Source: a virus
IMG/VR virus record: IMGVR_UViG_3300021399_000145
Coordinates: 1 to 64,000 of that record
Strand: one strand, 5' to 3'
DNA: 64,000 bases
A model generated the notes under the pieces. The model did not search any database. It had not been told where the DNA came from and saw nothing but the letters and a program-made list of their open reading frames with translations. This document shows positions 4,634 through 35,785 of the stretch, piece by piece; positions within the stretch are counted from its first letter, which is position 1, and each line of letters starts with the position of its first letter. A program made the position numbers and the translations under genes.

Positions 4634-5980
4634 TCAATTTTCGAATTTATCTTTAAGTTTTAAATATAATTCATATAATTCTTTACTTTTATCATCTAAA
4701 TTTGATTCTTTGTAGTCATCAAGAATAACTTGCGATGGTGTTGCAACGGAACTAATTCCATCTTTCGTTGCGTGTGTATATACGTTTTCTGTATTAATAG
4801 CTTTGTGTCCTACCTTTAGTGCCGTATTTACAATATTTGCATTCGCCTGACTATTAGCAATAGAGATGGCGGTATGTCTTAAAGAGTTGATTGATAAACC
4901 TTTCATTTGTCCTGTTTTTGTTAAATGCACATCTCTGTCTATACCCATCTTATCGCAAACCAAATTGAAGCCAACACGCATGGTTGCGTTACTTCTTCTC
5001 TTGCCATTTCGGAACGTGGGATATAGTAGGTCATCTTGATTGTTCAGACAGTGCAATCTAGTTTGTTCTTGCATATATTCTACACATTCTCGGCACAAAT
5101 CAGACATAACAATAAATCTACTTTCGCCATTCTTAGGTACTTTCACATACTCTTCAATACCGTTATTCTTGTCATTATTTATAAATCTTGTTGAACGTGT
5201 TTCAACAATGTTAATTATGTTCTGTTTAAGGTCAATATTACTATTTCGCAAAGATGCAAACTCGCTTTCTCGCATACCCGTTTCTAAAAGGAATAGTATT
5301 ACAACTGGATACTCGCTAATATTATGTTTGTAAGCGTAATAAAATTTTTGTATGTCCTCGGCGGTAAATACTTCTTTGCGATTTTTTAATTCTTGTTCGC
5401 GTTTGTAGTCGTACTCGTCTGCTACTTCTCGCGGTATTCTTGCAATTTTCGCGTAATTTTCATCTAACAAACTTATATTCGTAAGATATTCACAACACCT
5501 TCTGCATAGCTGAATAGGCAAAGAGCATGTCTTTCTTGATTTCTTTTCAAGAATTGTGTTGTAATAATTTTCAAATTCTACCGATGTAAGCATATGGAGC
5601 TGATAATTTGCAATCGGAAACTGATAGAAATTCACTTTCATGTTTGAACAATAAGTTAAATAGGCACTTTGAGTTATATTCGGCTTAATTTCGTTATCTA
5701 TAAACTCGCTCATATATTCGCCAAAGGTTTTTGTTTTCAAGAATTTTGAATCATTACCTTTTTCAAATTCTTTCTCCCATGCGCGTTTAGCCATCAGCGC
5801 ATTTTTTCTGGCTTCATCTTTTGTAGAACCAACTCTTTTTATTCTTTTTATTTTGCCAGTTTTGGGATTTAAATATTTAGCTGTCATAATACATTCATAT
5901 TTATTGTTATCAATTTTCCTTATACTACCCTCTCCGTTTTTAGCTTTATCTCTTGGCATTTCTTTTGTCTCCTTTATCAC
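4634..5980 (-). CDS. int: Tyrosine site-specific integrase with AP2-like N-terminal DNA-binding domain
   Basis: C-terminal catalytic signature LRHTAIS...HK...Y (R-HxxR-Y family). The N-terminal segment NGEGSIRK...KYE is typical of the integrase AP2/SAM-like arm-binding domain. Confidence 0.85.
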   Translation of the reverse strand: MIKETKEMPRDKAKNGEGSIRKIDNNKYECIMTAKYLNPKTGKIKRIKRVGSTKDEARKNALMAKRAWEKEFEKGNDSKFLKTKTFGEYMSEFIDNEIKPNITQSAYLTYCSNMKVNFYQFPIANYQLHMLTSVEFENYYNTILEKKSRKTCSLPIQLCRRCCEYLTNISLLDENYAKIARIPREVADEYDYKREQELKNRKEVFTAEDIQKFYYAYKHNISEYPVVILFLLETGMRESEFASLRNSNIDLKQNIINIVETRSTRFINNDKNNGIEEYVKVPKNGESRFIVMSDLCRECVEYMQEQTRLHCLNNQDDLLYPTFRNGKRRSNATMRVGFNLVCDKMGIDRDVHLTKTGQMKGLSINSLRHTAISIANSQANANIVNTALKVGHKAINTENVYTHATKDGISSVATPSQVILDDYKESNLDDKSKELYELYLKLKDKFEN

Positions 5981-5989
5981 TTTTTTTAC

Positions 5990-6262
5990 AACGGCAAAAT
6001 CAAACGTGATAAGTGTTAATTTTTAGTGATATTGGAAACATTATAAAACGCCCCGAAACACAATTCAATTGGAACTTTTTACCAATATAAATCGCGTTTT
6101 GAGGCGTTTCGTCATGTTTTATTTGGTTATATTGAACAAAAATTACTTATTTGGCATAGTGGATAACTTCAACAAATTCGGTTGATTTATCCTTTATTTA
6201 TGCGGTTTATTTTAGGTATGTTGCAAAACGTGATAATTAAATGTGATAATCAAAACGTTACG
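5990..6262. promoter_or_regulatory. Integrase-proximal regulatory region with AACGTGATAA / GTGATA repeats (candidate attP arm sites or operator)
   Basis: AACGTGATAA occurs at 6003-6012 and 6227-6236. GTGATAAT occurs at 6244-6251 and GTGATA at 6027-6032. The region is AT-rich and non-coding, lying between int and the next minus-strand gene. Confidence 0.35.
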
Positions 6263-6289
6263 AATCATTATTGTTCCTAGCACTTTTCG

Positions 6290-6484
6290 TTATATTAATA
6301 CTTTTTTACCTTTATATAATTCAAAAAATTTTCTATTGTATTCTTCTGTAGTGTAATATCTGTTACCTAATTTGAATGCGAATTGAATATTATACATACA
6401 TTTTAAAATTCGTAAAGCCTTATCACTTTCGCAACCATACATCTGCATAACATCTTCTTTGCCTATGTATTTTTGCTCAAACAT
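6290..6484 (-). CDS. Small protein, possible excisionase/HTH-like
   Basis: 64 aa, adjacent to int and in the same orientation. The assignment rests on position only. Confidence 0.2.
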   Translation of the reverse strand: MFEQKYIGKEDVMQMYGCESDKALRILKCMYNIQFAFKLGNRYYTTEEYNRKFFELYKGKKVLI

Positions 6485-6493
6485 TTTATGTAA

Positions 6494-7372
6494 TTAATCA
6501 CCCCCTTCTGTTTGCGTATCTGTTAATAATTTTTCTATATACCCTCGCCCTTCCTTTTTAAAGAGCGGAATATTTGAATCAATAAACCATTTGTTCCTAG
6601 TGAACGTATTACTGTCCGAATTGATTGGCGTACAAATTTGTAAAGATTTTATGCAACAACTACCGTAAATATTATATGGTTTATAATTTGATAAATCGTC
6701 ATTTTTTTCTTTAATCATTTTAATCATTTCTGATTTTGTTTTACCATATAATTCTTTATTGGAGTAGTATATTCTTGCAATCATATTTATTGAATTTCTG
6801 TATGCGTCCAATTGTCTCCAATAGAAATAATTTGTGACCTCTTCTTTTGGAATATTAAATACCCTACAATCAAATGTTGGATATCTTGAATCTATATAAC
6901 TCTCGTAGTTAAAATAATCTTTTGGAAGACTTGATAATAATTCTTTGTAACTTGAGCCAGACTGGAAAACTCTTTGTAGTTCATTTTCAATATGTTCTTC
7001 ATATTCATGAGCTACCTCTTCGAAATATTTATAAAATGAAATTGTTGCCATGCTCGAAATTACAGAACAAAGTTTTTGTATACGATAGCCAAAAAACGGG
7101 TCTGATTTTTCATTTAAATAATTTAAAAGTAGAAGTGATATCTCGTCTGATTGAGTGTAACCTAATACGCATTCTTGTATATTTTCGCAAAGATATTGCA
7201 TAGTTTTTCTCATTGTTTTAGATAACACTTCATCAAATGGTTTGTGGAATTTTTTTGCGAACGTATGAAAGCATCTACCGTCAACGCGTACAATAACTGG
7301 CTTGTCTGAATCCAGAGAAACATTAAATAGATGCTCATAAGCCTTCATTCTTTTATCAAATTCTGTATACAT
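6494..7372 (-). CDS. Thg1-like protein (tRNA-His guanylyltransferase family, 3'-5' nucleotidyltransferase)
   Basis: VIVRVDGRCFHTFAKKFHKPFDE and GYTQSDEISLL closely match the Thg1/TLP N-terminal catalytic motifs (VVRLDGRNFHRF...KPND and YGQSDEYSF). Confidence 0.75.
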   Translation of the reverse strand: MYTEFDKRMKAYEHLFNVSLDSDKPVIVRVDGRCFHTFAKKFHKPFDEVLSKTMRKTMQYLCENIQECVLGYTQSDEISLLLLNYLNEKSDPFFGYRIQKLCSVISSMATISFYKYFEEVAHEYEEHIENELQRVFQSGSSYKELLSSLPKDYFNYESYIDSRYPTFDCRVFNIPKEEVTNYFYWRQLDAYRNSINMIARIYYSNKELYGKTKSEMIKMIKEKNDDLSNYKPYNIYGSCCIKSLQICTPINSDSNTFTRNKWFIDSNIPLFKKEGRGYIEKLLTDTQTEGGD

Positions 7373-7605
7373 TAATTTTTCGCTTTCATTGAATTAAAAT
7401 ATTCTTCTATATATTCAGCCATCTTATCATCTTCTACATAAAACATATCTTCAATTCCCTTTTGAGAATATAGCCAACTAGAAAAATTAATTATAAGTTG
7501 ACCGAATCGCCAGTCTGGAATATAAAGTTTATGTAGCTCCGCAAGTCTTTCATAGAACGGTTGTAATCTGTTTGAATCTCTCAATCTTTCTAACCCCCTT
7601 TTCAT
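7372..7605 (-). CDS. Hypothetical protein
   Basis: ORF translationally coupled (ATGA overlap) to the Thg1-like gene, with a promoter-family motif upstream. Confidence 0.4.
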   Translation of the reverse strand: MKRGLERLRDSNRLQPFYERLAELHKLYIPDWRFGQLIINFSSWLYSQKGIEDMFYVEDDKMAEYIEEYFNSMKAKN

Positions 7606-7615
7606 TTTTATTGAG

Positions 7616-7644
7616 ATATTTTACTACTTATATGCTCCTTTGCC
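7616..7644 (-). promoter_or_regulatory. Promoter family copy (TTGGCA-N17-TAAAAT with conserved spacer GGAGCATATAAGTAG)
   Basis: Member of the conserved-spacer promoter family described in the findings. Confidence 0.45.
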
Positions 7645-7735
7645 AATAGTCAAATAAACGCATACATTATATGTAGATAATGGATTTTTCGCTAATTTTT
7701 CTTTTACATTTTTTTATTTTTTTAATATTTTTCCT

Positions 7736-8311
7736 TTAAAATTCACGTTTTATCGATTCTTTAAAATTTCGATATGTTTTATATTTTCTTTTCCATGATG
7801 ATTGAATGTCGCCCAAATTAAGTCCTAATTTATTTGTAACAAAATTTATGTATTCAAAATCATAAAGCTTTCTTCTACGTTTGTTTTTCTTTTTAATATC
7901 TTCAAATACTTCATCCTTTGAAATTTTGTATTTTGTTAATAAATAATTAGCCATATCTTTAGAAGAATACTCTTCGAATTGGCAAATAGGGCAGAATTCT
8001 TCTGGAACTTCACCGTAACACCATTCCGACAATATTTCATCAATCATGTCATCATTACTCATTTCAGAAAGTTCTTCTTCCGTTAATGGTTCAATAGATG
8101 AATAAGAGGACTCTATTTCTCGCATGAATTCTAACAATTTTTCTCGTGGTGGAGTTAACGCATGTTCATTACAAATAATATGACAATTTACACATTCAAA
8201 CATTTCTCCATCTTTTACTGAACAATCCCATCCAGAAATTTCATTACCACAAATATCACATACAAAACTTGATGAACTAGAATTGGTTACAAAATCTTTT
8301 CTGTATTTCAT
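7736..8311 (-). CDS. TNSSSSSF-motif family protein 1 with CxxC...CxxC zinc ribbon
   Basis: The N-terminus MKYRKDFVTNSSSSSFV is shared with two neighbouring paralogs. Four Cys lie in two CxxC pairs. Confidence 0.5.
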   Translation of the reverse strand: MKYRKDFVTNSSSSSFVCDICGNEISGWDCSVKDGEMFECVNCHIICNEHALTPPREKLLEFMREIESSYSSIEPLTEEELSEMSNDDMIDEILSEWCYGEVPEEFCPICQFEEYSSKDMANYLLTKYKISKDEVFEDIKKKNKRRRKLYDFEYINFVTNKLGLNLGDIQSSWKRKYKTYRNFKESIKREF

Positions 8312-8323
8312 AGCAATCTCCTT

Positions 8324-8806
8324 TTAGTGATGGCTAAATCGAATTAATGTGCAATCAAGATTCGGCATAATATCTTGTTCTAATGCGCTATTAACATGGT
8401 CGTCATATTCAACTTCCGCAAGAAACTCATAATCTGCTATAACAGATTCGAACGTTTTACACCTTTTTTCAACTTGTTTATTAACTTCATCTTCTATTTT
8501 ATTTTTATTATCATCTAGCCATTTTAAAAAATCTTTAAAATTTAAACCAAGTTTATACTCATATTTATTTTCTATTTTCCATCTTATAGGAAATTCTATT
8601 TCTTCACGGTATATGGCAACTGCTTTGTTTTTTGTTAAGTGGTTTTCTTTTTTCTTTATATCGCGTAAAACAATATCATAAGCATATCCACCGAAACGCG
8701 GGACAATAGAATCATATAGTTGCTTTTCGATATTATCTTTATTTTTAAATCCAACGATAAAACTACTTGAACTACTATTGGTTATATAATCAGTTCTTAT
8801 TTTCAT
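8324..8806 (-). CDS. TNSSSSSF-motif family protein 2
   Basis: The N-terminus MKIRTDYITNSSSSSFIV resembles those of the two paralogs. The C-terminus is unrelated. Confidence 0.5.
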   Translation of the reverse strand: MKIRTDYITNSSSSSFIVGFKNKDNIEKQLYDSIVPRFGGYAYDIVLRDIKKKENHLTKNKAVAIYREEIEFPIRWKIENKYEYKLGLNFKDFLKWLDDNKNKIEDEVNKQVEKRCKTFESVIADYEFLAEVEYDDHVNSALEQDIMPNLDCTLIRFSHH

Positions 8807-8898
8807 TTCATTTTATCCTTTTCGTATTATTATAAGTGTATAAATATATTGCATTATCTATTGTTGCGAATAACGCACCTAATAGCATTCCGTCAAGT

Positions 8899-9183
8899 TT
8901 AATCTTCTTCATTTGTCATGTGTTCACGTTCCATATCTTCACAACTGTCAGCCCTTTGTTTATCTCCATGCTTATAGTTGTGCTTACCGTTCCACTCGCT
9001 ATTGGTTTTACGATACTCTTCATGGTCGTGTATTTTCCCGTCAATATATTTACCTAGAATGCCATCATTATACTCTTTAGCGTCACCCCATATACTCTCA
9101 CAGAGTTTATATTTTCTTATAGCTTTGCGATAATTCTTTTTTCTTCTATCGCCCCTAGTTTTCTTTCTTCTGTCTTCACTCAT
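8899..9183 (-). CDS. Highly basic, His-rich small protein; start reassigned to MSEDRRKK
   Basis: A Lys/Arg/His-rich ORF. The upstream part of the ORF-track ORF overlaps the preceding gene, so an internal ATG was chosen. Confidence 0.3.
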   Translation of the reverse strand: MSEDRRKKTRGDRRKKNYRKAIRKYKLCESIWGDAKEYNDGILGKYIDGKIHDHEEYRKTNSEWNGKHNYKHGDKQRADSCEDMEREHMTNEED

Positions 9184-9538
9184 ATTGTGACACCTTCTTA
9201 AAATATTCACCATCATAATCTCGCGATGAGTATAAGAAATAGCTACCGTAATCACTTTGATTTTCTGCAACGCCACTAAAAATTTTCCAATCACCAAGCG
9301 TCAAATTAGGACTAATTAATTCATCTTCAAGATAATTTATTGCTATATCACGCAATTTTTCTGGCGTATAACCATTTTTAACGTAATATGAATATGAATA
9401 TTTAAATTCATTATCAATTATATGATAGTTTTTATTTACAAATTTTTTAATTTCATTAGTTAAATCAGCATCTTTATGAACCGCAATAATAAACGAACTT
9501 GACGAACTATTTGTTACAAAATCACATCTTACTTTCAT
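9176..9538 (-). CDS. TNSSSSSF-motif family protein 3
   Basis: N-terminus MKVRCDFVTNSSSSSFII. Confidence 0.5.
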   Translation of the reverse strand: MKVRCDFVTNSSSSSFIIAVHKDADLTNEIKKFVNKNYHIIDNEFKYSYSYYVKNGYTPEKLRDIAINYLEDELISPNLTLGDWKIFSGVAENQSDYGSYFLYSSRDYDGEYFKKVSQYE

Positions 9539-9768
9539 AACTCTTCCTCGTTGATTTTCTCAATATATCCACAATGTTCTAATAATTCTAAAAAGTCTTG
9601 AGCCATATGTTCGCCCATTTTAGGAGTAATATGTGAAAAATTAATAGCATAATCTGATAATACGCTTGATAAACACCCCCATTCCGTTAAAGTAAATACC
9701 GCTTCCTCGTCAATATCTTCTTCATTAATATAAAAAATTTCATCATCTATATCTTTATTTAATTCCAA
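9535..9768 (-). CDS. Small acidic hypothetical protein
   Basis: ORF with overlapping stop/start, strongly acidic. Confidence 0.35.
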   Translation of the reverse strand: MELNKDIDDEIFYINEEDIDEEAVFTLTEWGCLSSVLSDYAINFSHITPKMGEHMAQDFLELLEHCGYIEKINEEEL

Positions 9769-9825
9769 TTTTTAAAATCTCCTTTACTTTGTCACCATAA
9801 ATGTATATTAATCGGGACAAAATTA

Positions 9826-10935
9826 TCATTTTAAACTCTTATCTTTCTTTTCGCATAACACAATTTCTCTTCTTATTGGACAACCACCCATACATTCTCT
9901 TCGCCTAGAACAGCCAGAGCATGAATTTCTAAAGTGATTTCTAAAATCTTCAAATACATCGCTATCCCATGCGTTCTGAATCGTATCATTTGATATATCA
10001 TAAGCCCACTTCAAGTCCTGATTATCAAAGCTACACGGTAATGCTTTCATGTCAGATGTGATATACATACTCCATCTACCGCCCTCACATGTATCATAGC
10101 TATCTGGATTTATTTTTGTAGTATAGTTGATAAGCGCGGGAACTGTACAACTATCAAATCCGATTTTAAAGTTATGGTCTACATTTTCAATAGCTTCAAA
10201 AAATCTCTTTACTCGCGGGTCATATTCGCATAATATATTTGCCTGTGTACCTAATCCGACTGGTTTATGAAGCAAAAAGATTACTGCGTTTATGCCATTC
10301 GGAAAATCGTTATTCTTAACTCTTTCGATTGCTTCATCAATAGAGTTATTACCAAGAACATAATGGATATTTGTTTTAACACCCGCGTCAAGTAACATCT
10401 GAATTGCTCTCAGTGTATGAGGTTGTCTATACCAACTGATTGCTACCGCGCCGCAATACTTTTTACAAATATCAACAATCTCCTTATTGAATCCAAGTCC
10501 AGATGATGTAAAGTTGGGAACAATATTGTTATCGCGGCAGTATTTAAGAATTTCTTCAAAATTTTCATGTTGGTCTACGTCACCTCGACCTCCGAGCGCA
10601 AATTGGTAACATTTTCCTTTACACTCGTCAACAATTCTTTTAAAATTCTCAAATGTCATGTTTGGATATTTTGTTTCGAGTCCGTTTTGATAGCACTGAA
10701 CGCCAGACTTTATACATAATCCGCTCCTGCCGTGTTTGCAAAAACCCATTACGCCAACGTCAATTAATTCTGGAAATGAAGACATGAATGGGTCTATACC
10801 AGTATCTACGCCGTTTTCTATAATTCCTGTTCTGGCGTAAAATCCTGTTTCAGTATCGAAGGTTGATATAAAATTATGTTTGGTATCTTTCTTTGTAATA
10901 ATCATAAAACCTTTATATTCTCCATTGTCTCGCAA
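9826..10935 (-). CDS. Radical-SAM-like TIM-barrel protein with C-terminal SPASM/twitch-like Cys cluster and a non-canonical N-terminal Cys triad
   Basis: C-terminal CSGCSRRRECMGGC resembles SPASM CxxCx5Cx3C. An LGGRGD GGE-like motif is present. The N-terminal cysteines are spaced Cx7Cx6C rather than CxxxCxxC. The start overlaps the PurA-like gene stop. Confidence 0.4.
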   Translation of the reverse strand: MRDNGEYKGFMIITKKDTKHNFISTFDTETGFYARTGIIENGVDTGIDPFMSSFPELIDVGVMGFCKHGRSGLCIKSGVQCYQNGLETKYPNMTFENFKRIVDECKGKCYQFALGGRGDVDQHENFEEILKYCRDNNIVPNFTSSGLGFNKEIVDICKKYCGAVAISWYRQPHTLRAIQMLLDAGVKTNIHYVLGNNSIDEAIERVKNNDFPNGINAVIFLLHKPVGLGTQANILCEYDPRVKRFFEAIENVDHNFKIGFDSCTVPALINYTTKINPDSYDTCEGGRWSMYITSDMKALPCSFDNQDLKWAYDISNDTIQNAWDSDVFEDFRNHFRNSCSGCSRRRECMGGCPIRREIVLCEKKDKSLK

Positions 10936-12065
10936 TTTGATAAATAAACATGGTCAATTAATCGTTCATTTTTAATATTTAATATATCTTTATCAGTGAT
11001 TGATACCTCATTATTATGTGTTATATATAAAGAGAAATATCTATTGGCATCATTTTTTATTCTTGTTAATAAATTGTTATAATCAAGATATCCATATCTT
11101 AATTTACCTTGGTGCGGGTTAGGTATATTTGTTTTGTCGTATTCTATATTACCTAAATTCTCTTTTTTACATTCAGTTTCAAACTGTCCCGCGCCATGCC
11201 TTGTCATATATGTTCTAGTTACATAATATGGTTCTACATAAAATTCGCCAGAAAAGGATTTTTCAAACTCTATTATATTATGCATTCCAGTGTAACTCGG
11301 TGTTGTGTGTACGTTGTTCTTATCTCTATTCAAAAGCAATCCCTGTCCATTCTCAAAAATTATCGAATCATAACGTCTTACAATTTCTGCGTCTGTTTCA
11401 ATTGTATTTTCGAGCATAAACGTCAAGTCGTCTAAAAAGTGAAATCTTATCTTGTAATCATTGATTATTGAGAACCATTCGACCAAAACTTTTTTAGATA
11501 TTGTTCCACTTCTACGATACCTATTTAAGTTATAGATAAATAGATTTTCGCGGACTTTCATTTCTTGCATTATCTTGTAAGTATCTGCACTTTTAAAATC
11601 TTTATAGTGCCAAATATTATTATCTCTGTATACCTTTTCCGTTTCCCATATACCTAACCCGCAACTACCATGTTTATTATCGCGACTTTGCTCTAACATT
11701 TGATTGAGAATCATTTCGTAAAATGTAGAAACTCTGCAACCTTTATCAATATAAACTTTTGGTTTAAACCCTAATCTTTCAAGTTCTTGAAATTCCTCTC
11801 GGAATATAATGGGATTTAGAATGAAATGTTCGGATAAGTATGTATCTGCTTTCCTAAATGTTCCGCTTCCAAAATGTCTAAAAGCATGGCGCGTTCCATC
11901 TTCTAAAACAACAGTATGGGAACGTTGCGCTCCGCCGTTATTGCAAATTACAAGACAATTACTATATTTATTCATGGCTTCATTCGCCAGAAAATCAGTA
12001 ACAAGACCTTTTCCTTCATCGCCATAATTAGCACCAATAACTGCTTTAGCTTCAATCGTTCCCAT
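10902..12065 (-). CDS. Adenylosuccinate-synthetase family protein (PurA-like; candidate PurZ of the 2-aminoadenine pathway)
   Basis: GDEGKG P-loop, GGAQRSHT, SCGLG, FENGQGLLLN and TRHGAGQF match the PurA motifs GDEGKGK, GGHNAGHT, GTTGRGIGP, FEGAQGTLLD and TRVGAGPF. Confidence 0.7.
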   Translation of the reverse strand: MGTIEAKAVIGANYGDEGKGLVTDFLANEAMNKYSNCLVICNNGGAQRSHTVVLEDGTRHAFRHFGSGTFRKADTYLSEHFILNPIIFREEFQELERLGFKPKVYIDKGCRVSTFYEMILNQMLEQSRDNKHGSCGLGIWETEKVYRDNNIWHYKDFKSADTYKIMQEMKVRENLFIYNLNRYRRSGTISKKVLVEWFSIINDYKIRFHFLDDLTFMLENTIETDAEIVRRYDSIIFENGQGLLLNRDKNNVHTTPSYTGMHNIIEFEKSFSGEFYVEPYYVTRTYMTRHGAGQFETECKKENLGNIEYDKTNIPNPHQGKLRYGYLDYNNLLTRIKNDANRYFSLYITHNNEVSITDKDILNIKNERLIDHVYLSNCETMENIKVL

Positions 12066-12085
12066 ATCTTAAAACCCCTTATAAA

Positions 12086-12952
12086 TTACCAAGAAATACC
12101 ATCGGAAGAATTTTCTTGATTTGTGTTGTTACTACTTGCTTTAATAATGATTTCGGATATTACGTCTGGCAAAGAATTAAGTGTTGACTCATAATAATTA
12201 TCTCCGATAACGTTTTTAAAACTTGATGGTATATCATCATCGAGAAGCCATTTGTAACTTCTGTGATTTACATTAACGTGGTAAATGTGAAACTTCTTTG
12301 ACGCTTCATTATATAGAAAATCCGTTTTAATATCAGCCTGACAAGTATCGCCAGTGACAGCGTTCAACTTATCTTTCTGTAAATAAGGATTAAGAGTTTC
12401 ATCACCAAGCGTGATAATAATGCCTTTTTTGCCACGTTTCCAACAGTCTAGTTTTGTGTGATAAAGACCCATATACCAAGCGGCGGTATATGACTCATAA
12501 GCGTTACCACCACCGCCAAACTCGAAATATACCTTATCAAGATGCTCCGCAATTCTTATATCTGATTCAAACTGTGACATCTGAATTGGTGCATGGTCAC
12601 AATATAAATCACCGATACCCATAATACAAAACTCAACATCTTTTATTTCGCTGTAAAGTTTCGTCATAATAAGATTTAAACTTTTAGCAACTTCTACAGC
12701 CGCAGAACCCATTGAACCAGTAACGTCAAGCGCAAGGATTACTGGAATTGTATTTTGGTGTTCTTCTGTATCACAACATTCTCGCATAATATCTTTCGGG
12801 AAAAGGTCTGCGTGAATCTGAGATTGTTTATAAATACTCTGATTCGATGCAACACCAGAGCCAGTTAGCTTGCCGAGACTATCAAGAGTAGCCCCTTTCG
12901 TTGTACTTGAGTAACTGCAAAAACTTGAACTTGTCCAACTTCCACTACCCAT
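12086..12952 (-). CDS. von Willebrand factor A (vWA) domain protein
   Basis: MIDAS motif LALDVTGSMG (DxSxS) at the start of a Rossmann-like domain. Confidence 0.55.
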   Translation of the reverse strand: MGSGSWTSSSFCSYSSTTKGATLDSLGKLTGSGVASNQSIYKQSQIHADLFPKDIMRECCDTEEHQNTIPVILALDVTGSMGSAAVEVAKSLNLIMTKLYSEIKDVEFCIMGIGDLYCDHAPIQMSQFESDIRIAEHLDKVYFEFGGGGNAYESYTAAWYMGLYHTKLDCWKRGKKGIIITLGDETLNPYLQKDKLNAVTGDTCQADIKTDFLYNEASKKFHIYHVNVNHRSYKWLLDDDIPSSFKNVIGDNYYESTLNSLPDVISEIIIKASSNNTNQENSSDGISW

Positions 12953-12963
12953 ATAATTACCTC

Positions 12964-13554
12964 TTACTCTTCTTCGCTCTCGGCAGATTCTTCTGCGTCA
13001 TTATCGCCAAAATCAAAATCAAACATTTCTCCAAACGGATTTGCTCCGCCGTTCATCATAAGCATAAGCGGGAACATATTGTTATTGCCGCTGTGACTGC
13101 CATCCTTAAACATTTCAGTCATAGCCATATATTTAAATATGTTACCAATACCTTTACCACCCTTCTTAATACTGTCACCGAACATAGAAATAATCTTACC
13201 GTAAAAATATGTATTCCCCATAAACACATGCCGTTCTGGAATAACCGTTTTAATCTCTCCGCCCTCATAATCGATAACGGTAATCTTATTTTTGTCTGTT
13301 TCAATGACACATTTTGGTGTTCCGCCAATAAGGATAATATCGCCCTTCTCTACCTTGTTAGTTGGAAAAACAAAGAAAAATTCTTCGCCAATATCAAAAA
13401 CAAAGTTATCCTGATTCGTAAGCCTACCAGTCTTGACGTTATATGTTTTATAACCGTTACTTGTTTTCACAGCAATTCCGCCATTCATGGAAAGTCTGCA
13501 CATACCAGAGGCGAGCTTACCAAACATCTTCCCGAACATATTATTAAAGTCCAT
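12964..13554 (-). CDS. Hypothetical protein, Gly/Met/Phe-rich with acidic C-terminal tail
   Basis: ORF with an unusual composition. No motif recognised. Confidence 0.35.
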   Translation of the reverse strand: MDFNNMFGKMFGKLASGMCRLSMNGGIAVKTSNGYKTYNVKTGRLTNQDNFVFDIGEEFFFVFPTNKVEKGDIILIGGTPKCVIETDKNKITVIDYEGGEIKTVIPERHVFMGNTYFYGKIISMFGDSIKKGGKGIGNIFKYMAMTEMFKDGSHSGNNNMFPLMLMMNGGANPFGEMFDFDFGDNDAEESAESEEE

Positions 13555-13563
13555 ATTCTCTCC

Positions 13564-13890
13564 TTAGTTAAAATATTCTATCTTACATCCTGCTTTTTTA
13601 TTATTATGAATTATATGATTGAACGCGACAGAGCTTGTATTTTTGATGCTTTCATTATCGAATAAACATCTATCCCATTTATCACATCCTCTCGCTCTAT
13701 ACACATAGGGTTTATAGCAAACCCATCTACTACAATCATCAAACTCGATTTCAATTTGGTCGATTGTGGAGTTGCGATTTAACACCGCAACCCCCTTAGA
13801 TTTCTTTTCAATCTCAATCTTCTGCAACATTACTTCGCCAAGATTGAAGTTAAAAGTGTAAATGATATTAAGACTCTGATTCTGGCTCAT
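13564..13890 (-). CDS. Hypothetical protein
   Basis: ORF track; no recognisable motif. Confidence 0.35.
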   Translation of the reverse strand: MSQNQSLNIIYTFNFNLGEVMLQKIEIEKKSKGVAVLNRNSTIDQIEIEFDDCSRWVCYKPYVYRARGCDKWDRCLFDNESIKNTSSVAFNHIIHNNKKAGCKIEYFN

Positions 13891-14012
13891 CCTTTTTACC
13901 TTTCCTCTTTCTTTCCTGCTCTTCTTTTTTAATTTCGTTGTCGAGCTTGCGCATAATACTTTCCCACTTTGCCATCTGTTTGGCGGTAATAAGAATTCTC
14001 TGCCCAGTCTTT

Positions 14013-14891
14013 TTACTCATTTTTGCTTTCCTCTCTGCTGTCGGCAATCACTGAATCTGCTCCCTGTACTGTTACCCAACCATGTTCAAGTCTTGCCTCA
14101 GCTTCTTTCATACGGATAAGTTCTTCTGTGATTGACTCAGATATAATTTTGTTTGCTTCGGCTTCTGCTTCTGCTTTAGTTACTTCAATATCAGCTTCGT
14201 TTTGCGCCTTAATAAGATTTGTCTCTGCTTCAACCTGAACTGTTTTCTGCTTTGCTTCTGCTTGCGCTCTGGCTTGCTGTGCCTTTACACGTTCGTCAAT
14301 AGTTTCTTGAAGCTTTTCATCGGGGTGAGCATCAATAATTGAAGCATCGATAACCTCAATACCATATGCATCTTTGAATTCATTATTAAGATATTCTGTA
14401 AGTTCATTGTTAATCTGGCTACGATTGCCAGAATAAATATCCATCAGAGAATAATTGGTTGTAATCTCAGACACTTTAGATTTAAGAACTGTGCGAACCC
14501 TGCCCTGTACAATATCGTCTCCGTCCATTCCCTTAAAACGCTTATAAGTATCAACCAGTTTTTCAGGAATAAATCTATAAGACATTTGAAAGTCGATACC
14601 AATACTCGCATCATCCGATGTAGCAACTCGAAAAGATTCATCTTCTTCCGAACCCTCTCTCGAATCCTGAGTGAGAATAAGCTGTTCGTTTGAAACGGTA
14701 AATTCTTTTACTTTGATTGTCGGCGCAACAATATGCCAACCCTGACTTAATGTTTCGTCTTTTACTCCGCCAGAGATTGAATACTGAACACCCGCATAAC
14801 CGACAGGAATCTTTTCAATACAAATGATTGCACTAAACAAACCGATTATAAGAATCGCACCAACAATAACGCTACCGATAAATCCTTTCAT
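14013..14891 (-). CDS. SPFH/band-7 (stomatin/prohibitin/HflK-like) membrane protein
   Basis: N-terminal TM helix, then IPVGYAGVQYSISGGV...GWHIVAP typical of the SPFH core, then an Ala/Glu/Gln-rich coiled coil (QARAQAEAKQ). Confidence 0.6.
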   Translation of the reverse strand: MKGFIGSVIVGAILIIGLFSAIICIEKIPVGYAGVQYSISGGVKDETLSQGWHIVAPTIKVKEFTVSNEQLILTQDSREGSEEDESFRVATSDDASIGIDFQMSYRFIPEKLVDTYKRFKGMDGDDIVQGRVRTVLKSKVSEITTNYSLMDIYSGNRSQINNELTEYLNNEFKDAYGIEVIDASIIDAHPDEKLQETIDERVKAQQARAQAEAKQKTVQVEAETNLIKAQNEADIEVTKAEAEAEANKIISESITEELIRMKEAEARLEHGWVTVQGADSVIADSREESKNE

Positions 14892-15139
14892 TACTTACTT
14901 TCTCCTTTTTCGTTGTTGTAAAGTTTAGATATATATGAATTAATTTCTTTCTCGATGGAATCTAAATCAAACTCTTCGTGATACACTTCTTCTTCTGGTG
15001 GTTCTTCGTCATTTAAAATGCGTGTGATTTTTTCTTTCTTATTAAATACGAAATCACCAATTATCCTAAAGAGTCCACTGAGCAGATACCATACGAGAAA
15101 TAAAATTAAACAAATAATTAGCCAAAAAACTATATTCAC
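14891..15139 (-). CDS. Small single-TM membrane protein coupled to the SPFH gene (NfeD-like partner?)
   Basis: Hydrophobic N-terminus, with an ATGA overlap to the downstream SPFH gene. Confidence 0.35.
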   Translation of the reverse strand: MNIVFWLIICLILFLVWYLLSGLFRIIGDFVFNKKEKITRILNDEEPPEEEVYHEEFDLDSIEKEINSYISKLYNNEKGESK

Positions 15140-15816
15140 TTTTTTACCTCTACCTCTAGCAAATGTGTTGCTTCCATATCGGCTTCATGTAGAGCCATCG
15201 CAAGCGGAAACTTTTCAAAGGCATTTCCTAATGAGTTCCAGATATTTTGTCCTTCATAAGCTCCCATGTGAAATCTAATTGCGACCGCTTCTTCATCTGT
15301 GAGTGTAATATATTTATTTACAAGATATACACTCTTATCACCATGTCCAAATGGAAACTGTTCATCAGCTTTATAATAAGGTACTGTTTCCCATATAAAG
15401 CTACCATTATTATCAGACTTAATCTGCCAACGTGCGGCGGCACTTACCTTTTCCTCATCATATGTTTTCTGATTTCTAAAGTCTACCGTGTAGAAATTCG
15501 CTTTGCAAACATCATGAAGTAAAGCGGCGAGAGCAAGTGATTCATCTGGCGTTTCAGATAAATATTTAACCCATAGCGGATTTTTCTTCTTTTTAACAAG
15601 ACAAGTGTAAACATTCAAACTGTGAGAGACAAGTCCGCCCTCGTAATCACAGTGGAATCTTGACGATGCGGGAGCTGTATAAAAATCAGTAGATTCAAGA
15701 TAATCGATTAATTTATCAATACCCTCACGCTTTGTATCTCTCAAAATCATATTGAAAATTTCATGATTTGATAAGTCCTCAGTTTCTTTAAGAAGTGGTT
15801 CGCTGTTCAAATTCAA
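15136..15816 (-). CDS. HD-domain phosphohydrolase (DatZ-like dNTP hydrolase candidate)
   Basis: H...H (RFHCDYEGGLVSHSL), HD (LLHDVCK) and a downstream D (HEADME) form the HD metal-binding signature. Confidence 0.55.
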   Translation of the reverse strand: MNLNSEPLLKETEDLSNHEIFNMILRDTKREGIDKLIDYLESTDFYTAPASSRFHCDYEGGLVSHSLNVYTCLVKKKKNPLWVKYLSETPDESLALAALLHDVCKANFYTVDFRNQKTYDEEKVSAAARWQIKSDNNGSFIWETVPYYKADEQFPFGHGDKSVYLVNKYITLTDEEAVAIRFHMGAYEGQNIWNSLGNAFEKFPLAMALHEADMEATHLLEVEVKK

Positions 15817-15954
15817 TTCCTCCTTTTTAAAATAAATTCATAGTCGAGCCAGTAAATTAAATATACATCTGGACAAATGTATAATCGCGGCTTAATTCGC
15901 CACAAAATTTTTTTGATTTGTTCTAGCAGTTGTATCACCTCCAATCTGGTATAT

Positions 15955-15983
15955 ATTTTACTACTTACATTCCCGTATGTCAA
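15955..15983 (-). promoter_or_regulatory. Promoter family copy (TTGACA-N17-TAAAAT, spacer TACGGGAATGTAAGTAG)
   Basis: The -35 and -10 boxes and the conserved spacer were read on the minus strand. Confidence 0.55.
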
Positions 15984-15998
15984 GCGTAAATTTAGCGG

Positions 15999-16631
15999 TT
16001 AATCCCAACCATACTTCTCACCATCAGCTAGAAAACTTTTATAGTCAGAGATAAACTCTTTATTATCATGCGCTTTCCACATTTCTATGAATTGATATAT
16101 AGCTTCTTTATAATTCGAGAAGTCATATTCGATAGTTATCTGTTCGCCAAAACAATAATTCTTTATATCTTTATGATGCCCACGAATCTGTATACCTCCC
16201 GCATGAACGTCAAAGAAATCTATTCCTTCAAAGTTTGGGTAATCTTTCAGCCCCTTATGAATCTCATTTTCTATGTAACGCAACTGCCCTTTATGCTTTT
16301 CTAAGATACTTGAGTCAACATAAGGTTTTACACGAAATCCTTTATACAATCTTTTAATGTGTTTGTGGTGCTTTTGTGCCTCTTCGTAAGTTTCAAATAG
16401 TGAAGATAATGATACATATTGTGAGCGATTGCATAAATTCCAGTTTTCATCAAAAAAATATACCAATACATCTTGCCATATATCATCCCAATGTTTAATA
16501 TACCTATAACTATTATCACAATCAATAATACATGGTTTTATTTTATTGAGATAATGATAATAAAAAACTCTATTTGAAAAGTTGCGTTTAAATTGCTCTT
16601 TTGTCGTACCTTTTTTCGGTAATTTAACCAA
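15999..16631 (-). CDS. Hypothetical protein
   Basis: ORF track; no motif. Confidence 0.35.
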   Translation of the reverse strand: MVKLPKKGTTKEQFKRNFSNRVFYYHYLNKIKPCIIDCDNSYRYIKHWDDIWQDVLVYFFDENWNLCNRSQYVSLSSLFETYEEAQKHHKHIKRLYKGFRVKPYVDSSILEKHKGQLRYIENEIHKGLKDYPNFEGIDFFDVHAGGIQIRGHHKDIKNYCFGEQITIEYDFSNYKEAIYQFIEMWKAHDNKEFISDYKSFLADGEKYGWD

Positions 16632-16689
16632 ATTATAACTCCTTATTGCAATTTATTTGTACATATTGCACAAGTTTTAACAGTAGATT

Positions 16690-16857
16690 TTAGTCCTCTT
16701 TCGCCAGAAAATCGTCTAGCGAAATTGTAACTGTTAATCCATCGTTTTTATTAAAGTTATTAAATACTGTTTCAAGAATATGCTTTAATTTATCGCTGTC
16801 TTCCGCTTTAGCATAAAGTTTGTTGTAGCTATCATCACAAATTTTTAAATAATACAT
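16690..16857 (-). CDS. Small hypothetical protein (start reassigned to MYYLK)
   Basis: The upstream portion of the ORF-track ORF overlaps the Cys-rich ORF in another frame. Confidence 0.3.
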   Translation of the reverse strand: MYYLKICDDSYNKLYAKAEDSDKLKHILETVFNNFNKNDGLTVTISLDDFLAKED

Positions 16858-16858
16858 G

Positions 16859-17014
16859 TTATTCCCCTTCCTCAATGTTTGAATATTTATAACCACCGCA
16901 ACCATATGAATTTAAAGACTTAACCCACTTTTCGTGATAGTCGCAAAATCCGTATCCATCATCATCGTACTGGTCGAAATATAAACAACCCTCACAACCT
17001 TTGCCTTCCTCCAT
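16859..17014 (-). CDS. Small Cys-rich protein (53 aa, CxxC...C...CGG), below the ORF-track size cutoff
   Basis: Translated manually as MEEGKGCEGCLYFDQYDDDGYGFCDYHEKWVKSLNSYGCGGYKYSNIEEGE. The stop lies 1 nt from the next ATG. Confidence 0.3.
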   Translation of the reverse strand: MEEGKGCEGCLYFDQYDDDGYGFCDYHEKWVKSLNSYGCGGYKYSNIEEGE

Positions 17015-17029
17015 GCCCTAATACCCCCT

Positions 17030-17674
17030 TTAAGTGAAATCGCAAACCTTGATTTTTGTAATAATTCTGTTGTGCTGTCTATCATAAAGGTCTATTATTG
17101 GCTTACCGACTACACCTTCCATTTCGTGATTCGGGTTAATAAGTGAACAAGGGCGAGTCTTAATAAATTCAACAGCTTCCTTAATCGTTCCAGTCATAAC
17201 CAATGGTACGATTTTAATACCGAATGCTTTTGCAATATCCTGAATGTCCCGATATTTAAGCCAAGTATCTGAGCCAACCATATACACATCGAACAAGATA
17301 AAATCACAGCCATCAGGAATGTAATTACCGCCGCCTTTCTGGATTTTCGCGCCGTAACCTTCGCCAAAGAGAACCACTTCTTTCTCGCCAAACAGTTGTT
17401 CAAACATTTCTTCGGCTTCGTTCGTGCCAAAAATCTCAATTAATCTATTCATTAGATGCGCGGGAATCTGCGCTCTTTCTGTTCTGCCCTGATAGTTTAC
17501 TTTGTGTCCATCCCAGTATATACCCGTATTTGCTCCGTCGCATTTTTCGCTAAAAAACCAGAGATTATCAGACAAAAATTTAATAGCTTCGTTTCTATAC
17601 TCTCCCTCAATGAGTTTCTTACTTCCTTCCATGTCTCTGACAAATGGCGTTTCAATTTTGGTATATTTATACAT
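17030..17674 (-). CDS. ATP-dependent RNA-ligase-like nucleotidyltransferase (KxDG family)
   Basis: Motif I EKCDGAN (KxDGxN) with a downstream FGEGYG (motif IV-like) and a KIK motif. Its 214 aa size fits the minimal Rnl-type ligases. Confidence 0.5.
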   Translation of the reverse strand: MYKYTKIETPFVRDMEGSKKLIEGEYRNEAIKFLSDNLWFFSEKCDGANTGIYWDGHKVNYQGRTERAQIPAHLMNRLIEIFGTNEAEEMFEQLFGEKEVVLFGEGYGAKIQKGGGNYIPDGCDFILFDVYMVGSDTWLKYRDIQDIAKAFGIKIVPLVMTGTIKEAVEFIKTRPCSLINPNHEMEGVVGKPIIDLYDRQHNRIITKIKVCDFT

Positions 17675-17700
17675 ATCAATCTCCTTTATTTATTTTAAAT

Positions 17701-17729
17701 ATTATACTACTTATATTCTCTTTTGTCAA
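17701..17729 (-). promoter_or_regulatory. Promoter family copy (TTGACA-AAAGAGAATATAAGTAG-TATAAT)
   Basis: A perfect sigma70 consensus with a 17-nt spacer, 25 nt upstream of an RBS and the ligase ATG. Confidence 0.65.
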
Positions 17730-18280
17730 TTACAAATAAGTACGTCATTTACAATACATTCTATATCTGAATCTGAATGATATAAAAAATCGTAATATTC
17801 ATTTAAATAACTTGTTAATGAAATATATATTCCATCACTGCCTTTTTTCATAAGTTTAACACTATTATCTTTTTTTACTTCTACAATAACCGCCAGTTCT
17901 TTGTTATTTTTTCTAGTGTAAATATCGCCAACCTTTGGTTTGTGTTCTTCGTTGACTCGCTCAATTTGTTTAATTATTTCTTCTGCGGAAAATTTACTAA
18001 GTATATCACCCAAAAAACATTCTCCGTTGAATAATTCGTTATATAAATTATTATGAGCTTCGTCAATATCATCTAACATTATCACTAATGCTTTTCTTAA
18101 CTTATCCGCTCCAATCATTTCAGCCTCTTTAATATTGACAAGATTTTCGTTATCCTTCGAACACATAATATTTACTTTAGAAAGCGGATTATATATCTCG
18201 TAAAAATTATCTACTGAACTATCGTTAGCAATAACTTTTATATACATTTCTTTTCCCATAATGATTTTCTCCTTATTCAA
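17726..18280 (-). CDS. Hypothetical protein
   Basis: ORF track. Confidence 0.35.
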   Translation of the reverse strand: MNKEKIIMGKEMYIKVIANDSSVDNFYEIYNPLSKVNIMCSKDNENLVNIKEAEMIGADKLRKALVIMLDDIDEAHNNLYNELFNGECFLGDILSKFSAEEIIKQIERVNEEHKPKVGDIYTRKNNKELAVIVEVKKDNSVKLMKKGSDGIYISLTSYLNEYYDFLYHSDSDIECIVNDVLICN

Positions 18281-18470
18281 AATTATTTAATAATTGACGT
18301 AACTTTTCTTCTATATCTGGCGAATCTAAGCTACTCACCGTTAGTGTATACCACTCGTTGTCTCTTATTGCTATTAATTTGCATGAATCTCCAAATTTCC
18401 CATCTACTGAAATATATACCGACGGGTTTATCTTTTTCGCAAGTTCACGAATTTGATATATCGTTTTCAT
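18273..18470 (-). CDS. Hypothetical protein
   Basis: ORF track. Confidence 0.3.
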   Translation of the reverse strand: MKTIYQIRELAKKINPSVYISVDGKFGDSCKLIAIRDNEWYTLTVSSLDSPDIEEKLRQLLNNFE

Positions 18471-18525
18471 TCAAATGAATACTTATCTATCCTTTCTACA
18501 TTGTCTATATATCTTGTTTTTCTAC

Positions 18526-31291: not shown

Positions 31292-31433
31292 TCCCTAAAA
31301 CCCTATCATTCAACTGCGCATTATAGTTACCTGTACAGGTTGGTTATTTTGCCTACTTAGACCTTTCACGGATTCGCACCGCACCTCTTCTCACCAGACC
31401 TCAACCACCGAGCGGGAATCGAACCCGCCTTCG

Positions 31434-31508
31434 TTGTGAGTTCGGGACTCGAACCCGAAACCTTTGGTTTATAAGACCACTGCGCTCACCTAGTTGCGCC
31501 AACTCACA
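31434..31508 (-). tRNA. tRNA, probable anticodon UAU (Ile, AUA decoder); 75 nt
   Basis: Folded manually: acceptor TGTGAGT/ACTCACA 7 bp, D-stem GCGC/GCGC, T-arm TCGGG-TTCGAGT-CCCGA, anticodon loop CTTATAA. The anticodon stem has a G:A mismatch at position 27:43. Confidence 0.55.
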
Positions 31509-31513
31509 ATAAG

Positions 31514-31585
31514 CAGGGGTAGTTGGATTCGAACCAACGAATACAGCAGTCAAAGTGCTGTGCCTTACCGCTTGGCGATACCCCT
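31514..31585 (-). tRNA. tRNA-Gln (anticodon UUG); 72 nt
   Basis: Acceptor AGGGGTA/TACCCCT, T-arm GTTGG-TTCGAAT-CCAAC, anticodon stem CAGCA/TGCTG with loop CTTTGAC. Confidence 0.7.
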
Positions 31586-32498: not shown

Positions 32499-32529
32499 TT
32501 TAAAACCCTTTTTATTATTTTTAAATATT

Positions 32530-32605
32530 GGGGCGGCGGGACTCGAACCCGCACCACGGAACTGTCTTACCGCGCTCTTCCACACTGGTTAAGCTACACC
32601 CCTTA
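32530..32605 (-). pseudogene. Degenerate tRNA-like element (canonical T-arm and acceptor 3' strand, non-canonical anticodon arm)
   Basis: GTGCGGG-TTCGAGT-CCCGC-CGCCCCA at the 3' side and GGGGTG-TA-GCTT... at the 5' side fold as tRNA. The middle gives only a 16-nt arm with a 6-nt loop. This may be a pseudo-tRNA or may reflect a sequence error. Confidence 0.3.
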
Positions 32606-32890: not shown

Positions 32891-32973
32891 TGCGGGTAGT
32901 GGGATTCGAACCCACACGGTATATAACCAAAGGATTTTAAGTCCTTTGCGTCTGCCAGTTCCACCATACCCGC
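32891..32973 (-). tRNA. tRNA-Leu (anticodon UAA), type II with long variable arm; 83 nt
   Basis: Acceptor GCGGGTA/TACCCGC, anticodon stem AAGGA/TCCTT with loop CTTAAAA, variable stem GGT-TATAT-ACC, T-arm GTGGG-TTCGAAT-CCCAC. Confidence 0.7.
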
Positions 32974-35537: not shown

Positions 35538-35785
35538 CAATCTGTTACTTTTATGACCAGTTAATAACTGGCGGTCAAGGTTCTTCGACCCCAACTCATG
35601 CATTTCATTTAAGGTTATTGTGCATGTTCAGACTATCACATCCCCATCGAAATGGAGTCCTCTTATTTAGTCGTTCACGGTGTATTTAAACTTCCGCCCT
35701 GTTGTCCACCTCTGGATTTCCAAGTCAATTAAAGAGGATTGCTATAGCGGATTATGTATTATGCCGCTAAATGCCCACATAGTTT
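35538..35785 (-). other. Candidate group I intron (about 248 nt) interrupting nrdD
   Basis: The exon-1 end GUGCCU can pair with intron GGGCAU 10-15 nt downstream, giving a P1 helix with a U:G at the splice site. The intron ends in G. Joining the flanks gives an in-frame TEYVP/AENLGVKNA. Confidence 0.45.

Follow-up and report, generated by a model that had tools for sequence, protein, structure and literature searches.

A Thg1-like protein, a minimal RNA ligase and an HD-domain protein without conserved linkage in a large temperate phage of gut Clostridia

Organization of the locus

The stretch analyzed here, positions 1-64,000 of the IMG/VR virus record IMGVR_UViG_3300021399_000145 (the window, approximately half of the phage genome), encodes a Thg1-like protein (TLP; 6494-7372), an HD-domain protein (15136-15816) and a predicted minimal ATP-dependent RNA ligase (17030-17674). 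All three genes are on the minus strand, as are all genes from approximately 6 kb onwards. Together they span 11 kb, with unrelated genes for PurA-like, radical-SAM/SPASM, von Willebrand factor A (vWA)-like and SPFH/Band-7 proteins in between. An initial annotation of the sequence had grouped the three, together with phage tRNAs, as a tRNA-repair toolkit. The family scores of the Thg1-like, ligase, HD and tRNA features are far beyond chance. However, the three genes are neither an operon, nor a conserved cassette, nor a complete heal-and-seal pathway. The explanation that we favor, at slightly better than even odds, is a phage with two RNA-end repair enzymes that are independent of each other and with a YhaM-like HD nuclease unrelated to them.

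The Thg1-like protein resembles bacterial TLPs

The 292-amino-acid TLP contains all of the Thg1 motifs that had been named for its open reading frame (ORF), namely VRVDGRCFHTF, KPFD and GYTQSDE. Its Thg1-like identity holds in Pfam (PF04446, E = 4.8e-31; 107.8 bits against a cut-off of 29.2), and it matches phrog_4717, annotated as "tRNA-His guanylyltransferase" (E = 3.7e-73). The best solved relative is BtTLP of Bacillus thuringiensis (4KGK, E = 8.7e-42, full-length alignment). Among other solved enzymes, an archaeal TLP (5AXK) matches at 1.7e-12, and the human, yeast and Candida Thg1 proteins at approximately 1e-10 to 1e-9. Judged by sequence, the phage protein is of the bacterial type, nearer to bacterial and archaeal TLPs than to the eukaryotic, tRNA-His-specific Thg1. 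The nearest named cellular Thg1 homologue comes from a Lachnospiraceae metagenome-assembled genome.

In BtTLP, the catalytic carboxylates are D30, D75 and E76, with K43, R28 and E12 as further key residues (BtTLP paper). These correspond, with an offset of one residue, to D31, D76, E77, K44, R29 and E13 of the phage TLP. When 20 homologues were aligned, E13, R29, D31, K44, S75, D76 and E77 were invariant. Loss of the catalytic carboxylates had been named as the point on which the Thg1-like assignment could fail; D31, D76 and E77 are all kept. The phage TLP thus shares with BtTLP (4KGK/4KGM) the same carboxylates, the activation lysine and the arginines that bind the nucleoside triphosphate, but it is phage encoded and approximately 47 amino acids longer through an insertion at residues 118 to 156. 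This insertion of approximately 40 amino acids is variable, poorly conserved and common to Lachnospiraceae TLPs.

The preferred substrates of BtTLP are 5'-truncated tRNAs, which it repairs through templated nucleotide addition in the 3'-5' direction (BtTLP paper). By analogy, the phage TLP would follow the same chemistry. After activating a 5'-monophosphate RNA end with ATP or GTP, it would extend that end 3'-5', templated by the 3' strand of the acceptor stem, and in this way rebuild 5'-truncated tRNAs. Relatives of the TLP are encoded in at least 579 IMG/VR stretches, and 161 GenBank phage records contain an annotated Thg1-family gene.

The minimal ligase is predicted to belong to the Rnl2/Rnl5 clade

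The region from 17030 to 17674 had been described as a covalent nucleotidyltransferase (NTase) of RNA-ligase size carrying the motif EKCDGAN. This motif is present in the 214-amino-acid ORF, which matches the Pfam family RNA_ligase (PF09414, E = 2.2e-19; 70.7 bits against a cut-off of 27) and gave no match to the Rnl1-type family PF09511 in the Pfam search. Since sequence searches against the PDB yielded marginal matches only, the structure was predicted with AlphaFold2 (predicted local distance difference test score, 84.8) and compared to the PDB with Foldseek. The top matches are NgrRnl (6e-10), T4 Rnl2(1-249) (1S68, 2.5e-9) and TbREL1. Rnl3 and then Rnl1 rank lower, with T4 Rnl1 (1e-6) below structures of Rnl5, Rnl2 and Rnl3. 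Ranks 1 to 29 are all RNA ligases (6e-10 to 2e-6). A DNA ligase or a capping enzyme, the identities that would have contradicted the initial annotation, are not indicated: the first DNA ligase appears at 5e-6, others are weaker, and no capping enzyme is among the 50 matches listed.

The ligase contains motifs I (E43, K44, G47, N49), III (G104, E105, G106), IIIa (F128, D129), IV (E186, G187) and V (K207, K209). The motif residues are invariant or nearly so across 33 homologues, in which K44, E105, F128-D129, E186 and K207/K209 do not vary at all, and they align with the essential residues K35/E99/F119-D120/E204/K225-K227 of T4 Rnl2. The protein resembles T4 Rnl2 (1-249, 1S68) and Rnl5 (NgrRnl 5COT, DraRnl) in its NTase fold (Foldseek, 6e-10 to 1e-8; template modeling [TM] score of approximately 0.6 on the query) and in all five of these motifs, with motif I in its EKxxGxN form. 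It differs from both in what surrounds this fold. Because the ligase stops five residues past motif V and has approximately 38 residues ahead of motif I, it lacks the C-terminal domain of Rnl2 and the N-terminal oligonucleotide/oligosaccharide-binding (OB)-like module of Rnl5. The model TIGR02307 scores 24.7 bits against a cut-off of 197, its match spanning only profile positions 22 to 169 of 326, and TIGR02306 scores 15.6 bits against 151. The TM score normalized to NgrRnl is only 0.40 to 0.42. The predicted fold and the motifs place the protein as an RNA ligase of the Rnl2/Rnl5 nick-sealing clade, outside the strict Rnl2 or Rnl5 family. To our knowledge, it is shorter than any characterized RNA ligase. 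Most likely, it would adenylylate itself on K44 and seal 3'-OH/5'-PO4 breaks in folded RNA such as tRNA.

The ligase family (212 to 214 amino acids) returned 4,973 matches, and the best 120 of these 4,973 are 62 to 92% identical, so that by sequence the family appears large and unusually conserved. Most contigs bearing it are binned to gut Lachnospiraceae, Clostridia and Oscillospiraceae. Annotations of the small ligase appear in 66 records, among them those of Streptomyces, crAss-like and Lak phages. Among the Prevotella (Lak) phages, 15 records carry the small ligase and 15 carry Thg1.

The HD-domain protein is probably a 3'-end nuclease or phosphoesterase

The third member of the proposed toolkit, a protein of 226 amino acids, does contain the HD domain ascribed to it (PF01966, 22.5 bits, just above the threshold of 22) and matches phrog_28876, a "metal-dependent phosphohydrolase" (E = 1.7e-39); the role in tRNA repair that came with this assignment is unlikely. 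Its structural model consists of an all-HD domain with the conserved metal-binding His/Asp set and a beta-hairpin insertion (residues ~109-150), without an OB fold. Foldseek and profile searches against the PDB gave no significant match. In fold, the protein comes closest to the HD domain of YhaM (Cbf1; PDB 9H3F), a 3' exonuclease that differs from the phage protein in its N-terminal OB fold, in the absence of the beta-hairpin insertion and in sequence (16% identity only). The substrates of YhaM, a 3'-5' exonuclease, are single-stranded DNA and RNA (PMC12107432; PMC11347170).

In a related large phage, homologues with 56 to 58% identity lie between an ERCC4 nuclease and a PD-(D/E)XK nuclease and adjoin primase-helicase, Pol III alpha and DNA ligase genes. 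Further homologues adjoin a relaxase and a resolvase in a mobilizable element. These DNA replication and mobilization modules make a tRNA-healing role unlikely. From its predicted fold, the HD protein is probably a nucleic acid 3'-end nuclease or phosphoesterase, and probably one outside tRNA repair. It would more probably trim or process 3' ends of DNA or other nucleic acids during replication or recombination than heal tRNA ends.

The three genes are not conserved as a unit

Gene neighborhoods were counted in flanks of ±10 kb around 82 viral Thg1 loci, 80 viral ligase loci and 37 genomic ligase loci, with de-replication giving 41 Thg1 clusters and, at 80% identity, 50 ligase clusters. The small ligase accompanies Thg1 in 0/82 viral Thg1 loci, and the HD gene in 1/82. 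Conversely, Thg1 lies near the ligase in 1/80 viral ligase loci, while the HD gene does so in 8/80, equal to 4/50 clusters. Neither Thg1 (0/37) nor HD (0/37) occurs in the genomic ligase loci.

Comparison with syntenic relatives points in the same direction. The relatives L007/L008 and L010-L012 keep the ligase (70 to 75% identity) and the HD gene (78 to 79%), and the stretch between HD and integrase holds neither Thg1 nor the PurA-like and radical-SAM genes. In the relative L004, the order Band7-PurA-like-radical-SAM-...-Thg1-integrase is kept. Its Thg1 is only 60% identical, in contrast to 88% for the integrase and the radical-SAM protein, which puts Thg1 in a fast-changing island. The Thg1-like gene is a sporadic accessory gene of this hypervariable island, which is bordered by a tyrosine integrase gene (4634-5980, minus strand; NCBIfam tyrosine-recombinase matches). 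The ligase is a conserved core gene of the phage lineage. Thg1 and ligase are inherited independently, and the genes travel separately. Linkage this rare, and relatives that retain ligase and HD in the absence of Thg1, do not support the proposal of a single Thg1, ligase and HD toolkit.

RNA repair genes in the window and elsewhere

Phage T4 repairs tRNA with Pnkp and Rnl1 and thereby counters the anticodon nuclease PrrC. As anticipated by the initial annotation, the present set differs from the canonical T4 set, with no Pnkp-type kinase and no Rnl1 found in the window. tblastn and a Walker-A scan revealed no polynucleotide kinase, Rnl1/Pnkp fusion or RlaP in the window (best AAA_33 value, E = 7.5); the sole Walker-A ORF from the scan encodes a 447-amino-acid protein in the replication-gene region. 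A Pfam scan of 75 further window ORFs gave no kinase family among its matches, and RtcB, CCA-adding enzyme, 2H and PTH are not among the 25 of its 32 matched families shown. No cRec domain was found in the small ORFs adjoining the ligase. Apart from the proteins discussed above, the window has a single candidate for the healing of RNA ends, a calcineurin-type metallophosphoesterase of 252 amino acids (37479-38237, minus strand; PF00149, E = 3.4e-08; phrog_1649, E = 9.9e-39). Its gene is not linked to that of the ligase, the two being 20 kb apart; homologues were counted within 10 kb at 12/82 Thg1 loci and 10/80 ligase loci. The likeness to T4 therefore consists of an ATP-dependent phage RNA ligase, plausibly for tRNA repair, and tRNAs in the same phage, but here the ligase is of the Rnl2/5 type rather than Rnl1, and the window yielded neither a polynucleotide kinase nor a HAD or 2H phosphatase. 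Nor does the window encode an enzyme that would supply the 5'-phosphate after cleavage, which speaks against the suggested route for countering anticodon nucleases.

TLPs of the same subfamily can, however, sit in a true heal-and-seal neighborhood. In the viral locus L017, a Thg1 protein 46% identical to the present TLP is encoded 3 kb from a 735-amino-acid AAA_33-kinase/metallophosphoesterase/Rnl1 fusion (L017, 5122-10873), with an RlaP gene approximately 9.5 kb from Thg1, at the locus edge. This AAA_33, metallophosphoesterase and Rnl1-like cassette is not in the window. Across the 82 Thg1 loci, such fusions occur in 8/82 and RlaP in 10/82, besides the metallophosphoesterases already mentioned. 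On a Lachnospiraceae chromosome, a TLP gene directly follows that of an AAA_33 P-loop kinase (L015, 5414-6828), an arrangement that suggests a kinase and TLP pair for 5'-OH ends.

The small ligase is likewise found among RNA repair genes. In one locus (L013), it adjoins a cRec domain, with RlaP 1.8 kb further, and in Streptomyces phage Coruscant (L098, 83955-92590) a homologous small ligase (33% identity) is encoded inside a dense tRNA array. The same array holds a vWA-domain protein, to which the vWA-like protein of the window shows no homology. At 25/80 ligase loci, or 9/50 clusters, a tRNA gene is found no more than 3 kb away. Proximity to tRNAs was considered as functional evidence and set aside, being similar for both genes once de-replicated (within 3 kb, 6/41 Thg1 clusters versus 9/50 ligase clusters); no enrichment is claimed.

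Phage tRNAs have intact acceptor stems

The phage tRNAs reading AUA, CAA and UUA were confirmed by ARAGORN and Rfam (57 to 65 bits). They are tRNA-Ile(UAU) at 31433-31508 (Rfam, 64.1 bits; perfect 7-bp acceptor stem and no encoded CCA), tRNA-Gln(UUG) at 31513-31585 (65.2 bits; perfect acceptor stem, A1-U72) and tRNA-Leu(UAA) at 32891-32973 (57.2 bits; perfect acceptor stem), all on the minus strand and 14 kb beyond the ligase gene. None of these three bona fide tRNAs has a 5' acceptor-stem mismatch calling for editing by the TLP, and the window contains no tRNA-His. In a fourth, degenerate tRNA-like gene (32528-32603, minus strand), positions 1 and 72 are mismatched (A1.A72) and the anticodon loop is 10 nt long. 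This gene scores 35.5 bits in Rfam against a gathering score of 29 and was missed by ARAGORN; its cloverleaf has a minimum free energy of -28.8 kcal/mol (z = -1.6). The relatives L007 and L010, whose fetched stretch lacks the Thg1-like gene, carry the same three tRNA species plus others. Maturation of the phage's own tRNAs through Thg1, the second use proposed for the enzyme, is at odds with the perfect stems, the absence of tRNA-His and the presence of the same tRNAs in relatives without Thg1.

Other tRNA-like genes above the Rfam gathering threshold were also missed by ARAGORN in relatives (L007, 3408-3504 and 4499-4595; L010, 3210-3291; L002, 19754-19890), and some of these genes are 97 to 137 nt long. 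Like the fourth gene of the window, they could be decoys, pseudogenes or noncanonical tRNAs. In the window, a fragment resembling a T-arm and 3' acceptor strand (GGCGGGTTCGATTCCCGCTCGGTGG; 31400-31432, minus strand) lies directly downstream of tRNA-Ile and may be the remnant of another tRNA gene.

Neighboring genes and the phage lineage

The genes between 9826 and 12952 lie outside any RNA-repair function. They encode, on the minus strand, a radical-SAM/SPASM protein (9826-10935; PF13186), a PurA homologue (10902-12065; PF00709, E = 3.1e-31) and a vWA-like protein of 288 amino acids (12086-12952; phrog_2971). The PurA homologue is divergent: the GDEGKG P-loop and the catalytic Asp are kept, NPHQGK stands in place of the PurA TTTGR stretch, and approximately 90 C-terminal profile positions are missing. 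A pair of vWA and PurA-like genes occurs 3 to 7 kb upstream of Thg1-like genes in 13 to 14 of the 82 viral loci and may represent an uncharacterized nucleotide or nucleic acid modification module. Closer to the TLP gene, paralogous small proteins encoded at 7736-8311, 8324-8806 and 9176-9538 (minus strand) share the N-terminal motif D[FY][VI]TNSSSSSF. At least five copies of this family are present in L004, and its PHROG match is weak only (phrog_7397, function not assigned).

Two endolysin-like genes (PG_binding_1/CHAP) accompany the tyrosine integrase at 1.5 to 6 kb. Nucleotide metabolism is represented in the window by a split NrdD, NrdG-like, ThyX, dUTPase and NDT-like genes, plus the metallophosphoesterase, and the replication and recombination module comprises Pol III alpha with PHP, DnaG/DnaB, a Sak single-strand annealing protein, ERCC4 and PD-(D/E)XK. 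The anaerobic ribonucleotide reductase NrdD is divided into two ORFs, 35067-35603 and 35759-37180 (minus strand), which are 155 nt apart and represent Pfam profile positions 12 to 414 and 415 to 561; no intron match in Rfam came up to the gathering threshold.

The syntenic relatives are metagenomic contigs of 109 to 133 kb. A megablast search of positions 6000-18500 against 50,697 phage records gave zero matches, which leaves the phage without a cultured relative of similar DNA sequence. The phage is a large, temperate phage of gut Clostridia, probably with Lachnospiraceae-type hosts.

Discussion

Taken separately, each enzyme looks like RNA repair, and we lean, by a little over even odds, toward a phage that carries the TLP and the ligase as two independent RNA-end repair enzymes next to an unrelated HD nuclease. 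This reading builds on the family assignments, catalytic residues, folds and absence of conserved linkage described above; from these we infer the substrates and, in vivo, a role in counter-defense against tRNA-damaging host nucleases. Targeting of tRNA is a major strategy of anti-phage immunity, exemplified by PrrC, PARIS, Retron-Eco7, bacterial Schlafens and Cas12a3.

Several points weigh against this reading. Since the window spans only about half the genome, the remainder could encode a kinase or further repair enzymes. The ±10-kb flanks miss pairs spaced as in this lineage, where Thg1 and ligase are 9.7 kb apart here and approximately 13.5 kb apart in the closest relative (L018 and L105, on the same contig). 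Moreover, one other viral contig (L161, 101.7 kb), and only this one, has all three genes within 10 kb, where they fall within 8 kb at 10001-18048; a MazF/PemK-like toxin gene and two recombinase genes are also in or beside that stretch. As for the ligase, work from the Shuman laboratory reportedly showed that T4 Rnl2(1-249), its nearest solved equivalent, fails at step 2, the completion of nick sealing, without the C-terminal domain. By analogy, the minimal ligase may need a partner or have another substrate. We know of no anti-phage nuclease that leaves 5'-truncated tRNAs, and a literature search for a defense nuclease producing them found none, nor was a biochemical assay of any phage TLP or NTase-only RNA ligase found in the literature.

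Other explanations treat the genes as working together. The three proteins could cooperate in one noncanonical tRNA-repair pathway that counters anticodon nucleases or other tRNA nucleases of the host, in which the HD protein would heal 2',3'-cyclic or 3'-phosphate ends, the TLP restore nucleotides and the ligase seal. Their genes are found within 11 kb here, recur together in the closest relative and in L161, and Thg1 lies beside HD in one further locus (L047); HD-domain end-healing enzymes exist, such as Runella HD-Pnk. Phage kits with ligases, phosphoesterases and Thg1 have also been proposed (PMC7824862). We nonetheless regard such a pathway as rather improbable. The linkage is not conserved across the loci counted, close relatives keep ligase and HD without Thg1, unrelated genes separate the three, and the HD fold is that of an exonuclease whose homologues belong to DNA replication and mobilization. 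In addition, with no 5'-OH kinase in the window, the ends left by anticodon nucleases would not be sealable by an ATP-dependent ligase. Alternatively, ligase and HD might act in DNA transactions, with the ligase sealing nicks that have an RNA 3'-OH strand (primer or ribo-patch junctions), the HD protein trimming 3' ends and the Thg1-like protein being unrelated. For the Rnl5 enzyme DraRnl, two 3' ribonucleotides at the nick are sufficient, and Deinococcus lacking this enzyme becomes sensitized to radiation (PMC5397189). The genes flanking the ligase in the present lineage are for DNA methyltransferases and anti-restriction functions, HD homologues occur in replication and recombination modules, and ligase and HD are within 10 kb of each other in the 8/80 loci noted above. 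This adjacency is, however, largely confined to related phages, the ligase has no OB domain of the DNA-ligase type, and its positions beside cRec, near RlaP and inside tRNA arrays argue for RNA repair; we judge the DNA-based explanation unlikely. A final cooperative scheme would be "reverse gap-filling" of tRNA stems. Where a host nuclease has taken nucleotides out of the 5' strand of a helix, the TLP would fill them in again by 3'-5' synthesis, with the undamaged 3' strand opposite, and the NTase-only ligase, requiring as Rnl2/Rnl5 do a duplex nick with 3'-OH/5'-PO4 ends, would seal the nick that is left. Such a route, comparable at the RNA level to the repair of DNA gaps, would do without kinase and phosphatase. 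The co-occurrence of Thg1 and ligase genes here, in the closest relative and in L161 is relevant to it, but since their linkage is not conserved it is unlikely to be a general system, and we see little chance that it operates.

The remaining explanations concern single enzymes or other pathways. If the TLP matured the phage's own tRNAs, it would edit the 5' side of mismatched acceptor stems or add G-1 to tRNA-His. TLPs do perform such 5'-editing in the mitochondria of Dictyostelium and Acanthamoeba, the phage does have tRNA genes, and the A1.A72 mismatch of the degenerate fourth gene could be corrected by templated 3'-5' synthesis. Besides the intact stems and the lack of tRNA-His in the window, what argues against this is that L007 and L010 have tRNAs, one of them with a U1.C72 mismatch, without a Thg1-like gene in the fetched stretch, that tRNA-His accounts for only 3/97 tRNAs near viral Thg1 genes and that at 66/82 Thg1 loci the 10-kb flanks are free of tRNAs. 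Maturation of the phage's own tRNAs is weakly supported at best and highly doubtful as the function of the TLP. Finally, the HD protein and the PurA homologue could be DatZ and PurZ of the 2-aminoadenine (Z) genome pathway, making the HD protein a dATP hydrolase. The PurA homologue matches phrog_1211 ("2-aminooxy adenylosuccinate synthetase", which contains PurZ) with E = 1.2e-53, the HD gene is 3 kb away, and dUTPase-like and NDT-like genes are in the window. Yet in all 147 phage PurZ/PurZ0 sequences the catalytic Asp (Asp13 of PurA) is replaced by Ser (PMC12884076), whereas the homologue here retains GDEGKG with the Asp. It scores 36.8 bits against a cut-off of 300 in the NCBIfam PurZ model, and the HD gene is conserved in relatives without a PurA homologue. 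The PurZ/DatZ identity is effectively refuted: the PurA homologue is not PurZ, and the HD protein is not DatZ.

Returning to two independent repair enzymes, the idea of Thg1 and ligase as phage repair equipment is not new. Iyer, Anantharaman, Krishnan, Burroughs and Aravind described in 2021 how RNA ligases, end-healing phosphoesterases and kinases, RlaP, CCA-adding enzymes and, "sporadically", Thg1 accompany phage tRNAs, with restoration of 5' nucleotides as the role of Thg1 (PMC7824862). The present phage shares with these repertoires the listed components, namely ATP-grasp-fold RNA ligases (Rnl1/Rnl2 families), phosphoesterases, tRNAs and Thg1 (PMC7824862). It differs in being of approximately 110 to 130 kb rather than a jumbo phage, in that RlaP, cRec, a kinase and a CCA-adding enzyme were not found in the window, and in that its HD protein is outside the phosphoesterase families assigned to RNA healing. 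The locus adds no new principle and is a typical example of cataloged kinds of phage genes.

Phage countermeasures beyond spare tRNAs and the Pnkp/Rnl1 pair of T4 are poorly characterized. The ligase family would be the smallest natural RNA ligase and may be of biotechnological interest. TLPs are common in phages, and because no known defense nuclease leaves 5'-truncated tRNAs, identifying the substrate of the TLP could reveal a new class of host attack.

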